Source: Octopus sinensis (taxonomy: Eukaryota). Taken from it: DNA of 64,000 nucleotides. The notes beneath the pieces are model-generated. The model was not told where the DNA came from. It searched no databases and was given only the letters and a program-made list of their open reading frames with translations. Where the stretch lies: positions 35,030,001 through 35,094,000 of the forward strand of contig NC_043005.1 of the NCBI RefSeq assembly GCF_006345805.1. The letters run 5' to 3'. Position 1 is the first letter of the stretch. Each line of letters starts with the position of its first letter. Shown piece after piece: positions 8,340 through 54,230 of this stretch. The position numbers and the translations under genes were made by a program.

Positions 8340-9306
8340 CTGTTCCATGATGGTAAGATCAGCAAAAAAAAAAAACACAATAAACACAATATTTGTTTTT
8401 ATGTGCTACTATTAGTTTCATGTACTGAGAACATGCCAAATAGTGTCTTATAACATGTCATGTGTACCACTACAATCATCAGACACTGCTCACATGGCAT
8501 AATGAACTAAAAATGAGACAAGTGATAAAGTGAGAAAAGGTGAGAAGGAAGTATATATAAAAGGTGGAAGATTGAAAAACCAGAAAATAAAAAAGAAATC
8601 AGAAATAAACAAAAAAGGATAATAAGAATTATTTCCCTTAGACCGTAAACTATAATGCTGAAAAGATTGTCGCTGAGAGCTTAAACCCTACACAATTCAG
8701 TGAGGAAAGTACTTTCCAATTCATCAACAGGAACTTAAGCATATGCTTACAACCGCTGAAAATTTTGGATCTAGAGTTCAGCAGTGAGTCACAGTTTTTA
8801 AATCTGAGTGTTTTCAGCTACACATAGCTTACATTTTTTTGATTTGTAAACCTAAGATGTGGATTTTCCAACTATTTTCCACTTTATCATGTGTGGTGCA
8901 GCGTTTGATTTCAAAACCCATACATGATTAGCCAACTTAGTAGCTATACTTTTGTGTCAGTGTCAGAAGGAAGATATGTTGGTTAGCATAGTGATTTTTA
9001 AAGTTGCCTTCACATAGTCTGATGTAGTTCTTCTTATCTGGTTGTGTTATCATCTAGCATTGCTGTAACCTCTGCCTCATATATGCTGGTCAGGTAGACA
9101 GGTTCCTGGGTCTCAACAGTTACGACTGAGAGTAGGCTCTTGGTGTTGATCTTGTGTAATGATACTCTTCATATAAGGGCAGCAGTTATATCGTAATTTC
9201 ACTGAGTACCTGTTAAATATTTTCTTGTATCTGTGTACCTGTACTATTTGGCATGTTCTGAGCACATGAAACTAATAGTAGCACATAAAAACAAATATTG
9301 TGTTTA
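8340..9306 (-). mobile_element. 5'-truncated Penelope-like element (GIY-YIG remnant, HHR-bearing pLTR, inverted partial pLTR)
   Basis: Broken minus-strand frames at about 8860-9130 read like IYEAEV..KNYIRLCEGNFKNHYAN..SSF..TKLANHVWVLK..IKWKIV. 9244-9306 is the reverse complement of 8381-8443. Confidence 0.72.
8403..8486 (-). ncRNA. Type I hammerhead ribozyme in the 3' pLTR of a Penelope-like element
   Basis: gtgt CTGATGA t tgta...taca t GAAA ctaatag TA gcac: intact core, helix I gtgt/gcac, GUA cleavage triplet. Confidence 0.72.
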
Positions 9307-9439
9307 CTAAACAATATATATATACGTATATAGGTAGATAGGTAGATATAAGTGTGGGTTGGTATAAGGAATGACAAAAATATTCCTCAACAAATTCCAT
9401 CTGACCCAAGCAAGCATAAAAACTGGGCATTAAAACAAT

Positions 9440-10060
9440 GAAGTGATGAGGATGGAATATTACCAGTATAGATCTGGGAAGACCATAGTTTAAAATAAAC
9501 ACTTGATGACTATAAGTAATGGTTATTTGTAACATTCACTGATATTCACTCAATTCTAAACAGCTTTTAATTTTAAAAATTTTTTATCAGAATGGCTTCT
9601 TTAATCTGTAGGTTACTGATGTTATAGTCTATTGCCGTAACGGTGAATATTATATCCTTACTCATATTCCTGTAGTCTCAAGGTATTTGTTGAAAAGTGA
9701 TGTACATGTGTGCTGTGATGTTCTTTGATTCAGATGTGTAATTGCTGAATTATGTTGCTGTCAACATAGAATTTGTTGCATTTGGTACATTGGTTCTGAT
9801 ATATAATGTAAATGTATTTATGAGATAAAGCTCCAGCATACATAAGTTTTTTGTTGGTGAAGAGACATATCTTGCATAGACATTTTCATGAGAAGCCTTT
9901 GAGCTGGCTGGCTGTATATCTTGTCCTTTTTAAATATATGGCCATGATTATAGTGGAGGTTGTGCTGTTGTTGAATTGTGATAACTTTAGAAACAGATGT
10001 TGGAAAAAGTTTTTTCTAGTTCTTCTGCTTAGGAAGCTGAAGTCACTTAAGTATTATTAG
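9440..10060 (-). mobile_element. Second decayed Penelope-like fragment (GIY-YIG region)
   Basis: Minus strand at about 9720-9810 reads IYQ..CTKCNKFYV..QLHI*IKEH, resembling the PLE endonuclease motif. Confidence 0.5.
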
Positions 10061-10069
10061 AATGCTGCT

Positions 10070-11515
10070 GAAAGGTTGCAAGCTGACTGAATTGTTAGCA
10101 TGTCTTTACCTTCTAAGTTCAAATTCCACCAAGGTCAACTTTGCCTTTCATCCCTCCAGGGTCAATAAAATAAGTACCATTTGAGTACTGGAGTCAATGT
10201 AATTGACTTAACCTCTCCCAGGAAATTTCTGGCCTTGTGGCAAAATTTGAAACCATTATTAGAATGCTGGGTATTATTAGAATGAAACAGGTATTATTGT
10301 ACCCCGCTTCTCACTATCTACTCGTGCTACTACATACAATTCTATCTGTCTATGGGTATTATGAGTAAGTATTATCTTGAGTTTAAGGACTCATAGGGCC
10401 AGTTATCCAGTTTCCATGGTATTTAAGTGATCAAGATCACAAGATTCTTCCTGAATGGGAATGCAGTCAGGAATGCCACACCATAAACACTTGACAGTAT
10501 ACCTTCATATTATTATTATGAGATGGCTTAAGGCAGCGAGCTGACAGAACCATTAGCATGCTAGGAAAAATGGTTAGTGGCGTTTCGTCTGTCTATGTTC
10601 TGAGTTCAAATTCAGCTGAGGTTAATTTTACCTTTCATCCTTTTGGGGATCAATGAAGTAAGTACCAGTTATGCACTGGGGTCAATGTAATCGACTAGTT
10701 CCCTCCCCACAAATTTCAGACCTTGTGCCTATAATAGAAAGGATTGTTATGAGATGGCTTTAAGGTGGCAAACTGGCAGAATCATTAGTATGTTGGGCAA
10801 AATGCTTAGTTGTATTTTGTCTGTCTTTATGTTCTGAGTTCAAGTTCTGCTGTGGTCAACGTTGCTCTTCATCATTTTGATAAGTACAAGTAAAGTGTTG
10901 GGGTCAATACAATCAATTTACCTCCTCACTATAATTGTTGGCCTTGTGCCAAAATTTGAAATCATCATCATCATCATCATCATTATTATTATTATTATTA
11001 TGAAGGCTGGACAAAATACTTAGCGGTATTTCGCCTGTTGGTATGTTCTGAGTTCAAACTCTACTGAGGTCAACTTCACCTTTCATCCTTTCAGCATCGA
11101 TAAAATAAGTACCAGTTAAACACTGGGGTTGATGCAATCGACCTTTCCCTTCTCCCAAAACTGCTGCCCTTGTGGCAAAATTTGAAACCACCACCACCAT
11201 CACCACCACCACCACCACCACCACCATCATCATCCATCATCATCATCATCATCATCATCATCATCATCATCATCATCATCATCATCATCATCATCATTAT
11301 TAAGGCAGTGAGCTGGCAGAACTGTTTGTACACTGGGAAAAATGCTTAGTGGTATTTTGTCTGTCTGTATATTCTGAGTTCAAATTCTACTGAGGTCACT
11401 TTGCCTTTCATCCTTTCAGGGTTGGCAAAATAAGTACCAGTTGAGTATTGGGGTTGATGTAATTGACTTACCTCTTCCCCTAAAATTGCTGGCCTTGAGC
11501 CGAAATTGGAAATTA
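10070..11515 (+). mobile_element. Head-to-tail cluster of about 5-6 copies of a ~210 bp tRNA-derived SINE
   Basis: Repeated ggcgagctggcagaa...gttctgagttcaaatt...ttgcctttcatcc...aagtaccagtt units separated by ATT/ATC microsatellites. Confidence 0.8.
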
Positions 11516-52414: not shown

Positions 52415-52738
52415 TTGCTTGCTCATGAAATTAATCTGCAAGTGGCTGAGTACTCCACAGACACATGTACCCTTAACGTAGTTCTTGGGGAGATTCAGCA
52501 TGACACAGAGTGTGACAAGACTGGCCCTTTGAAATACAGGTACAACAGAAACAGGAAGAAAGAGTGAAAGTTGTGGTGAACGAATACAGCAGGGTTCGCC
52601 ACCACCCCCTGCCGGAGCCTTGTGCAGATTTAGGTGTTTTTGCTCAATAAACACTCACAACGCCCGGTCTGAGAATCAAAACTGTGATCCTATGACCATG
52701 AGTCTGCTCCCCTAACCACTGGGCCATTGCACCTTCAC
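52415..52738 (-). mobile_element. tRNA-derived SINE, third family
   Basis: Head tggcccagtggttagg..; related pieces at 60835-61003 (-), 3495-3795 (+) and 1345-1665 (-). Confidence 0.72.
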
Positions 52739-53476
52739 ATAGATACATATATATATATATATATAATATATATATATATATTATATGCATATATTTATAA
52801 ATAATATATATGCATATATTTATAAATAAATATATATATATATATATATATATATATATATATATATATAAGTGTTCTTGTATCTCCTCTCTTGACATTG
52901 GATGATAGTACTGTCATTGCAATATAAGTAGTATTAGTAATTTCCAATCGTCCATGGAAACATTTCCAAGAATGGTAATATTTCATCTTCAGGTTGGTAA
53001 CAGGAAGGGCATCTGGCTACAGAAAATCTGCATCAACAAATTCCCTGCGTCCCATGCAAAAATAGAAAAGTGTATATCAAAACAACAACAATAATAATAT
53101 AATAAAAGTATATCTATTTATCTATCTCTCAAATTATCTGTTGCTCTCTAACAAGTTTATGGTGAACCCAGTGCAGGGAAGACCTCTAGAATTTTCAGCC
53201 CCTGGACAATATCCTTGCTCACTGCTATTGAGGTACAGATGATTATCTGCAAGTGTGAGCCCTGTGATTCTCTACTATTTTCTGGGGCAATGCCTTTTCC
53301 ATTTTGTCTGCTGGGATCACAAGGCTACCTGAATTACAGGAAATTGAGAGAATTTAAGAATTTCTATCTATCCATATATTTGCTGTAACTACACCTATTT
53401 CACTATTCTCACCATTCATAACAAACATTATTAATTAAACTATGTTTGATACAATTTAGGTGTTAAAGTGACTTAC

Positions 53477-53574
53477 TTCAATGACCAAATAACGTCCAGG
53501 ATCCCTTGACATTTTACCAAATTCAACCTCTAATTCTTTAAAAGAGGGTCTGCTTTCAGCATCCAGCATCCAGC
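53477..53574 (-). CDS. EGFR: EGFR kinase end exon
   Basis: tgcag|(C)[38 protein letters not shown]; 98 nt. Confidence 0.95.
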
Positions 53575-53698
53575 CTGCAAAAAAGCAAAAAAAGCAATTG
53601 AAACAATTTAGTATTTTATTTTATCTTTTTTAATTTATCCTATTTATGAAACATATTCATTTTTTCCATAGTCATTGATAATCATGAGCCTCCTACTC

Positions 53699-54230
53699 TT
53701 ACATTATTTACAATTGACGGATATTTGTCCTCATCTTGTTTGTTGTTAACACGTTTCAGCTGATATACCCTCCAGCCTTCATCAGGTGTCTTGGGGAAAT
53801 TTCGAACCTGGGTTCTCATTCCTAAGGTATTTTTTGATGTTGTTGTTGTTGTTTATTATTATTATTATTATTATTCAGGTCACTGCCTGGAATCGAACTT
53901 GGAATCTTGGGGTTAGTAGCTTGTGCTCTTAACCACTACGCCATATGCCCATGGGCATATAGCGTAGTGGTTAAGATTCCGAGTTCAATTCCAGGCAGTG
54001 ACATGAATAATAATAATAATAATGATAATAATAATAATAATAATGATAATAATAATAATGATAATGATAATAATAACAACAACATAGAAAAATACCTAAA
54101 AAATACCTAAAAATACCTAAATGTTGTGTTAACAACAAACAAGATGAGGACAAATATCCGTCAATTGTAAATAATGTAAATAATGTACATAATTCCTCAT
54201 CTCTTAAATATAGAACTGTACTCCTTCTCT
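53699..54230. mobile_element. Fold-back element with a tRNA-derived head, (AAT)n and an HHR remnant
   Basis: Centre gcccatgggc at 53951/53952; arms end at 53699 and 54179; A box TGGCGTAGTGG and B box GTTCGATTCC; HHR core on the minus strand at 53748-53790. Confidence 0.75.

Follow-up and report, generated by a model that had tools for sequence, protein, structure and literature searches.

Head-to-head hammerhead ribozyme loci in an Octopus sinensis contig carry the insertion signature of Penelope-like elements and include a candidate promoter-headed family

Several palindromes in a 64 kb stretch of the Octopus sinensis genome (assembly GCF_006345805.1, contig NC_043005.1, positions 35,030,001 to 35,094,000; hereafter the window, to whose first letter all coordinates refer) carry hammerhead ribozyme (HHR) motifs that point away from the palindrome centre. 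A first-pass annotation linked them to Penelope-like elements (PLEs) and knew of no such description in cephalopods. Are these palindromes a new kind of mobile element, or the product of a known one? We find that their recurrent geometry is the known insertion signature of PLEs, here mostly of Hydra-clade elements, which had been reported from Octopus before, and nothing new is learned from the palindrome architecture alone. Each palindrome consists of two outward-facing HHR-bearing ends placed head to head, most likely by one insertion event of a PLE reverse transcriptase (RT)-endonuclease (EN). Beyond print, as far as we searched, are a family with a long HHR domain II and a long tail (loci A and B) and an abundant promoter-headed family (locus E).

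Head-to-head ends and their link to Hydra-clade elements

The window is 36% G+C and microsatellite-rich. Self-comparison recovered all five palindromes where they had been reported. Locus A is made of a left arm (25661–25855, − strand; HHR core nucleotide C3 at 25774, cleavage nucleotide at 25697) and a tail-less right arm (25857–26050, + strand; C3 at 25938, cleavage nucleotide at 26015) that is followed by (TA)n. A one-sided tail of ~120 nucleotides (nt) extends the left arm (25541–25660, − strand), ends in (TA)n and is homologous to the tail of locus B (29020–29137, − strand), which also ends in (TA)n. The palindrome of B (29138–30031) has arms at 29138–29581 and 29585–30031 around a 3-nt centre, with HHRs at 29246 (−) and 29917 (+). 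The two arms of A are identical at 190 of 191 sites; those of B show 441 matches over 444 and 447 nt, with no substitutions and nine gap columns. At both loci the HHR core is whole in both arms. The outer ~170–290 nt of B are 76–78% identical to A and, judged by these sequences, A and B are one family, represented by two independent insertions that are ~23% diverged. Both left arms carry the same tail, and the tail-less arms of the two loci have a common end point, one homologous base that precedes (TA)n and lies ~36 nt beyond the cut site, while arm length differs (195 vs. 450 nt).

Locus D (42611–42909) has Hydra-type HHRs at 42723 (−) and 42796 (+), their form being compared by eye with File S2 of Craig et al., 2021. 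Its arms match at 127 of 145 positions and both hold whole cores, with helix II partly decayed. Locus C (40262–40541) is a decayed palindrome (40262–40455; arm identity 73/94) with a degenerate HHR (C3 40340, −) and a right-hand tail of ~80 nt; CUGAUGA survives in the left arm only, and GTAA replaces GAAA in both. The claim of an HHR in both arms at four loci thus holds for A, B and D, and C has decayed out of it, leaving three. A second copy of C (41676–41869) was found within a tandem duplication (39209–42058; ~1.44 kb unit, 99.0% identical, bounded by (TA)n) that is either recent or an assembly effect; since both copies sit in this duplication, we count them as one event.

A sixth locus, F (8336–9306), is asymmetric and links the palindrome geometry to the endonuclease end of a Hydra-clade PLE. 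Its long arm (~900 nt, − strand) contains a Hydra linker and endonuclease (9241–8713), an HHR (C3 8482) and a tail (8336–8380). The short arm (9243–9306, + strand) holds the 3′ half of the HHR without the tail, and is identical to the long arm at 62 of its 64 nt. The arms face outward between two (TA)n runs. F is simply a truncated copy of an autonomous element, its arms unequal in length: the HHR, with a domain II of 56 nt, sits 231 nt downstream of the open reading frame (ORF), and the C-terminal EN retains CxxC and CxH around its E and N.

All of A–F show an inverted, 5′-truncated copy joined at its 5′ end. A type I HHR is present in the terminal repeat, decayed in C, and the outer ends of the arms lie 27–155 nt beyond the cleavage site. 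One-sided tails, reported previously for three loci, are indeed found in A and B (left, ~120 nt) and E (right, ~40 nt), and also in C and F; in D the tail is not clear. (TA)n flanks A, B and F on both sides.

A strict type I HHR descriptor gave seven matches in the window, against a mean of 0.09 (maximum 2) over 200 shuffles. A relaxed descriptor, which allowed one core mismatch and a longer domain II, gave nine motifs, six of them at a score of at least 11 vs. 0.2 over 40 shuffles. With simple repeats masked and C counted once, the window has seven distinct local inverted repeats, and six overlap an HHR motif; random placement yields a mean of 0.64, and none of 200,000 draws reaches six. This comparison uses a hand-curated list of 15 motifs, decayed ones included, in a single window.

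The geometry is that of a published insertion unit. In EN-bearing PLEs this unit consists of an inverted 5′-truncated copy, a one-sided tail of 30–40 bp and an HHR (Craig et al., 2021, PMC8557442); head-to-head was found to be the most frequent arrangement, and self-priming was proposed at junction palindromes (Arkhipova et al., 2013, PMC3846280). The loci in the window share with it the head-to-head inverted copy, the tail at one end, the HHR near the 3′ end, the junction palindromes and the microsatellite targets. They differ in the length of the A/B tail and in that the arms of A–E have no recognisable ORF. A cephalopod example was also on record: the Craig et al., 2021 (PMC8557442) supplement has an entry for Hydra-1_Obim, an Octopus bimaculoides element that bears an HHR and targets (TA)n; by eye, its HHR sequence differs from those in the window. 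For Penelope-13_HM the same supplement records HHRs on the two strands together with an inverted partner, and close opposite-strand HHR pairs were described in Schistosoma (Cervera and de la Peña, 2014, PMC4209133).

RWK and DKT motifs, a CxCX5C linker and an EN with CxxC and CxH define the Hydra clade (Craig et al., 2021, PMC8557442). A decayed RT with RWK and DKT motifs lies at 26687–27785 (+). Searching with its stop-free part returned 571 proteins at E ≤ 0.001, and among the 150 of these that were listed we took 19 relatives of at least 600 amino acids (aa). DKT or DKS occurs in 18 of the 19 and DKG in one; the RWK pattern was matched in nine. CxCx4-6C is present in 15 of 19, and in F the linker is decayed. 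A profile built from the 19 relatives matched the window at the RT remnant (independent E-value, iE, 2.5e-43) and at the linker and endonuclease of F (9241–8713, −; iE 3.6e-16), with nothing else in the window below iE 0.5. Two of the three decayed PLE ORFs reported earlier are therefore recovered; the third, at 28.1–28.7 kb, resembles by eye a decayed continuation of the RT remnant but did not score in this search and is not counted. Pfam did not detect the decayed ORFs, and even in full-length relatives RVT_1 falls below cut-off in 2 of 11; a word-indexed protein search with the RT remnant and a first metagenome scan gave no match, and a cluster look-up yielded no names. Just past this remnant, at 28094–28128, 35 nt match the end of the F tail at 91% before (TA)n, a very short end-piece of the F family.

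We compared these loci with 77 Hydra-type loci from metagenomes. In 58 of them the ORF is followed by 150 nt or more, and 34 of these 58 have an HHR 47–524 nt downstream, with a helix III insert of 6–8 nt and a domain II of 10–29 nt. The helix III form of A, B, F, G and H (G and H being single ends described below) is this 6–8-nt insert form. In contrast, domain II is longer in the window: 54–60 nt in A and B and 54–100 nt over A, B, F and H. The window thus shares with the Hydra clade the RT and EN motifs, (TA)n and an HHR with a short palindromic helix III behind the ORF, and differs in domain II. It is likely that A, B, C, D, G and H rely on PLEs of the Hydra clade. Some inverted repeat is seen in 12 of the 77 metagenome loci; in three of them an inverted copy occupies the first bases of the contig, as expected of an inverted 5′ partner (L024 1–65/1791–1855, L053 3–173/2021–2201, L065 1–84/2694–2777).

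The repeat family at locus E

Locus E is not in (TA)n. Its left arm (53699–53951, −) comprises a transfer RNA (tRNA)-type head, an (AAT/AAC)n spacer, a minimal HHR (C3 53785) and a tail-less 3′ end. The right arm (53952–54221, +) has the head with a 22-nt deletion, an expanded (AAT)n, an HHR that is mostly deleted and a tail of ~40 nt (54180–54221), so the HHR is confined to the left arm, as reported. The centre of the palindrome is the 5′ end of a ~75-nt head carrying an A-box/B-box pair at tRNA spacing (53890–53943, −), a feature absent from the first-pass annotation. This is the only strict match to the box patterns on either strand of the window, vs. a shuffle mean of 0.235. ARAGORN made no tRNA call in the head at its default or down to an 85% threshold, and Rfam gave no tRNA match there; more relaxed ARAGORN thresholds produced many chance calls and were dropped. 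A possible target duplication of 3–5 bp is too short to count. Reports from the 1990s of tRNA-derived octopus short interspersed nuclear elements (SINEs) may include the head of E.

The E family is short, non-coding and of high copy number. All or part of region 53400–54010 is held by 20 of 24 listed sequencing runs, from 13 studies; 18 rows of six organisms hold 27–55% of its words, and two insect-metagenome rows (word share 0.05–0.07) were not counted as evidence. Reads of the family were examined in four of the 24 runs, X1, possibly the source of the window itself, and three of a different organism label (X9, X22 and X23); X9 lacks most of the E flank. Summed contig depth in X1 is 4–7 million in the HHR part and 1.1–2.0 million in the left head, whereas one flank contig has a depth of 30.8. 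These ratios of ~1.4x10^5 and ~6x10^4 give an order of magnitude rather than a copy number, and by this rough measure the family is of the order of 10^5 copies.

The copy in the window lacks 3 nt that most family reads carry. Majority letters of the reads restore helix I, through a 3-nt insertion near 53750, and helix II. This majority form is a minimal hammerhead matching the features given by Cervera and de la Peña, 2014 (PMC4209133): an extra nucleotide between 9 and 10.1, G10.1-C11.1, a palindromic 15.2-16.2 and no loop III. It differs from minimal PLE HHRs in following a tRNA-type promoter head instead of an ORF. The 3′ end of E is an HHR with a PLE-type tail, and neither the 3′ end of a long interspersed nuclear element (LINE) nor an A-rich or microsatellite tail. 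E works like a SINE but is not LINE-dependent.

Each of the four runs contains tail-bearing loose ends at 53699–53703. In four X1 contigs a copy cut short at 53750, 53785, 53791 or 53802 is fused to opposite-strand sequence at 53946–53960, and an opposite-strand joint at 53910–53973 is found in X9, X22 (137 reads) and X23 (66 reads). In the DNA runs, depth at 53961 is 7–9% of that at 53951 and ~1–2% of head depth, figures that palindromic mapping makes rough; fully symmetric E dimers seem to be a minority in DNA. In each DNA run 54 contigs cross the short hairpin at the E centre and exit at 53957 into shared other sequence, the signature of a 5′ palindrome inherent to the family or of an inverted arm that survives as a fixed remnant. 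Reads break at the spacer (53826–53882), so the linkage of head and HHR throughout the family is drawn from the E copy, the joints and one RNA loose end.

The family is transcribed: 8138 reads out of 12.9 million in one RNA run and 6527 out of 12.0 million in another were assigned to it, and 75% of the assigned reads continue into unlike sequence. The RNA has no discrete starts at the head and no piled-up ends, in libraries that behave as unstranded. RNA editing of hairpins from adenosine to inosine had been suggested for such loci. Places with A>G or T>C vs. places with C>T or G>A number 41:30 and 48:34 in the RNA runs, compared with 13:18 in DNA of the same organism label and 9:22 in DNA of another organism. 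Fisher tests of the RNA ratios give p 0.20 and 0.14 against the former and p 0.010 and 0.006 against the latter. Non-editing differences rise equally in RNA (53910 G>T goes from 0.3% to 18%), so the excess is explained by a few expressed copies, and editing was not shown by this check. Within the E flank, RNA reads of the other organism label cover 53463–53588 at a depth of 20–40 per direction with several differences, probably from a separate low-copy repeat.

We give about even weight to the reading that E is a PLE-dependent SINE, in which a tRNA-type RNA polymerase III (Pol III) head is followed by the 3′ end of a minimal-hammerhead PLE, present in the order of 10^5 copies in octopuses. E is likely a non-coding, Pol III-promoter-bearing passenger of a PLE clade other than Hydra. 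The closest described elements are Schistosoma SM-alpha and Sj-alpha, SINE-like elements with a Pol III promoter and an HHR in tandem repeats (PMC6765202). They resemble E in being short non-coding repeats with a Pol III-type promoter and then an HHR, and differ in that theirs are tandem with cleavage-competent HHRs, whereas E is dispersed, with a minimal HHR, a PLE tail and marks of an inverted partner. Octopus repeat surveys treat SINEs and PLEs apart (PMC13282606, PMC8967140); the main text of PMC13282606 does not mention hammerheads or ribozymes, and it leaves 893 of 900 recently active O. vulgaris SINE families unclassified. The literature that we searched, which includes few subscription papers and excludes Repbase and Dfam, describes no tRNA-headed, hammerhead-bearing, PLE-type cephalopod element. 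If the reading is correct, a SINE-like family carried by PLEs instead of LINEs would re-assign part of this unclassified load, E would be among the major repeats of octopuses with about as many HHR motifs in the genome as copies, and its insertion would keep generating transcribed head-to-head hairpins.

Mode of insertion and its alternatives

How would such head-to-head ends arise? In vitro, a PLE protein has been shown to cleave the two strands of AT-rich DNA and to extend each of them, with two RT start sites that bound the tail and with uncleaved RNA as template (Frangieh et al., 2024, PMC11167929). By analogy, the PLE enzyme would nick both strands of an AT-rich target, and each would prime synthesis on uncleaved RNA at one of two fixed start sites near the RNA 3′ end. 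The outer site would give the tailed arm and the inner site the tail-less arm. Synthesis would halt early, and the two 5′-truncated products would join at a short self-complementary spot. Equal arms would follow when both products stop at the same hairpin, as may be the case in A, B, D and E, and unequal arms otherwise, as in F and the further E-family junctions. The model fits because the fixed inner and outer ends lie beyond the cut site by the distances given above. The inner and outer ends of A and B are a natural test of two-start-site priming in a second PLE clade, with a tail 3–4 times longer.

Folded as a whole, the loci form single hairpins (z −47 and −20). Since the two HHRs are on opposite strands, the arms would pair within one read-through RNA and no dimeric ribozyme would form in cis; in such RNA the HHR is predicted to be masked, making these loci sources of double-stranded RNA and not active ribozyme cassettes. 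The proposals that the loci are PLE-related, carry outward-pointing type I HHRs and would, by these predicted folds, form long double-stranded RNA are borne out. The earlier proposal of a population of short PLE-mobilised elements is supported in part, in that the arms of A–E are free of Hydra coding sequence and the family to which E belongs is non-coding and very large.

Several results weigh against this account. No HHR was found in 24 of the 58 Hydra-type metagenome loci under the descriptor used, blastn of the window's ends against the 77 loci gave no match, and no autonomous parent was found for A/B, C, D or E. The inverted repeat at 44943–45099 has no HHR motif. Isolated HHR folds are no more stable than shuffles (z −1.62 to 0.48 for eight windows at A, B, D, E, F, G and I). 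In helix I of A and B all 39 cells are paired, with two two-sided changes, but there are just three distinct rows and 63 of 500 shuffles equal this. The junction evidence from the E family comprises 15 of 123 joints and 24 of 931 loose ends. Rfam gave no hammerhead match in any of three scans, its microRNA matches in the window being hairpin or microsatellite noise. Such HHRs may escape covariance models because of their long domain II, and cephalopod counts are probably low on this account; 235 Hammerhead_1 loci are given in the giant squid paper (PMC6962438). Finally, the joining of products from two templates and the fold-back of one complementary DNA (cDNA) are indistinguishable in these data.

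Fold-back, the model of the first-pass annotation and close to the self-priming of Arkhipova et al., 2013, is a tentative possibility. It invokes the same elements with a different junction step: a single cDNA folds over at a short hairpin and serves as its own template, and the second arm is cut back to the tail boundary by the endonuclease. It accounts equally well for the symmetric centres, which span 1 nt in A, 3 nt in B, ~10 nt in D and 0 nt in E; young arms are near identical, and the E centre coincides with the short self-complementary 5′ end of the family, where the 54 contigs per DNA run leave at 53957. However, simple fold-back does not give the arms of ~900 and 64 nt in F, in the four X1 joints partners truncated at different points are joined to a copy that begins at the head start, and the PLE protein in vitro extends both target strands from two start sites.

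Are the palindromes instead mobile units in themselves, such as miniature inverted-repeat transposable elements (MITEs) or other palindromic non-autonomous elements copied whole? The arms of A–E have no homology to the Hydra ORF, and some E-family junction contigs reach a depth of 138–393 vs. ~31 for the flank contig, which may mean that some inverted forms exist in several copies. We consider this unlikely, since A and B share ends yet differ more than twofold in arm length, the ends are made unequal by the tail, and depth falls within 10 nt of the right arm of E to the small, if rough, fractions given above.

A retrozyme origin, in which unit-length RNAs cut by the HHR circularise and re-insert, is more doubtful still. 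Animal non-LTR retrozymes (LTR, long terminal repeat) are head-to-tail tandem units with circular RNAs (PMC7229834, PMC7761336, bioRxiv 10.64898/2026.07.22.740005). The loci in the window resemble them in being non-coding with type I HHRs, and dependence on PLEs has been proposed for retrozymes; the 5′ extension of the E family beyond the E head is unexplained, which leaves some room for this origin. The window has no head-to-tail tandem units, its loci are head-to-head with ends that run on past the cut site, and the RNA showed neither piled-up ends nor a back-joint among the joints shown (a weak test in fragmented, unstranded libraries), so the label 'retrozyme-like' is not retained. Assembly or chimeric-read artefacts, which the single difference over 191 sites in A, the lack of any listed contig spanning the whole of E and the doubtful 1.44-kb duplication holding C might suggest, are extremely unlikely because the independent insertions A and B share an end point, and because arm divergence is 22% in C and 12% in D and inverted E-family joints recur in both the DNA and the RNA of another organism label.

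Single ends and neighbouring features

Further HHR motifs lie outside A–F. G (26125–26275, −; C3 26257) is a single Hydra-type end that runs into (TA)n, and H (47604–47945, +; C3 47614) is a single HHR with a 100-nt domain II whose 3′ end also runs into (TA)n. No inverted partner was found for either; a second, decayed HHR motif near H is at 47333. Short blocks are common to the 3′ ends of G and D, which points to related Hydra-type families, with no blastn match between them. I (2151–2294) is a decayed HHR (C3 2238, −) within 20-nt inverted ends and probably a small asymmetric unit, and J (13060–13180, −) is a decayed minimal HHR-like motif. The additional motifs listed earlier at 8403, 26219 and 47610 thus stand, as F, G and H, while those at 2198 (in helix I) and 13157 (two core mismatches) are decayed.

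The inverted repeat at 44943–45099, with arms of ~33 nt and a spacer of ~90 nt, is perhaps a MITE. A 358-aa open frame at 32878–33951 (−) matches RVT_1 (E 4e-17) and is a LINE-type RT fragment unrelated to the palindromes. Another SINE-like family, without a hammerhead, has five copies that are 81–91% alike (26277–26410, 6858–7007, 7301–7410, 2756–2863 and 12939–13039), one of which adjoins the 5′ side of G. The palindromes are upstream of a large exon at 5788–6726 (−) of a vasopressin/oxytocin-type G protein-coupled receptor (cephalotocin receptor 2-like), whose product is 94% identical to a protein labelled Octopus bimaculoides.

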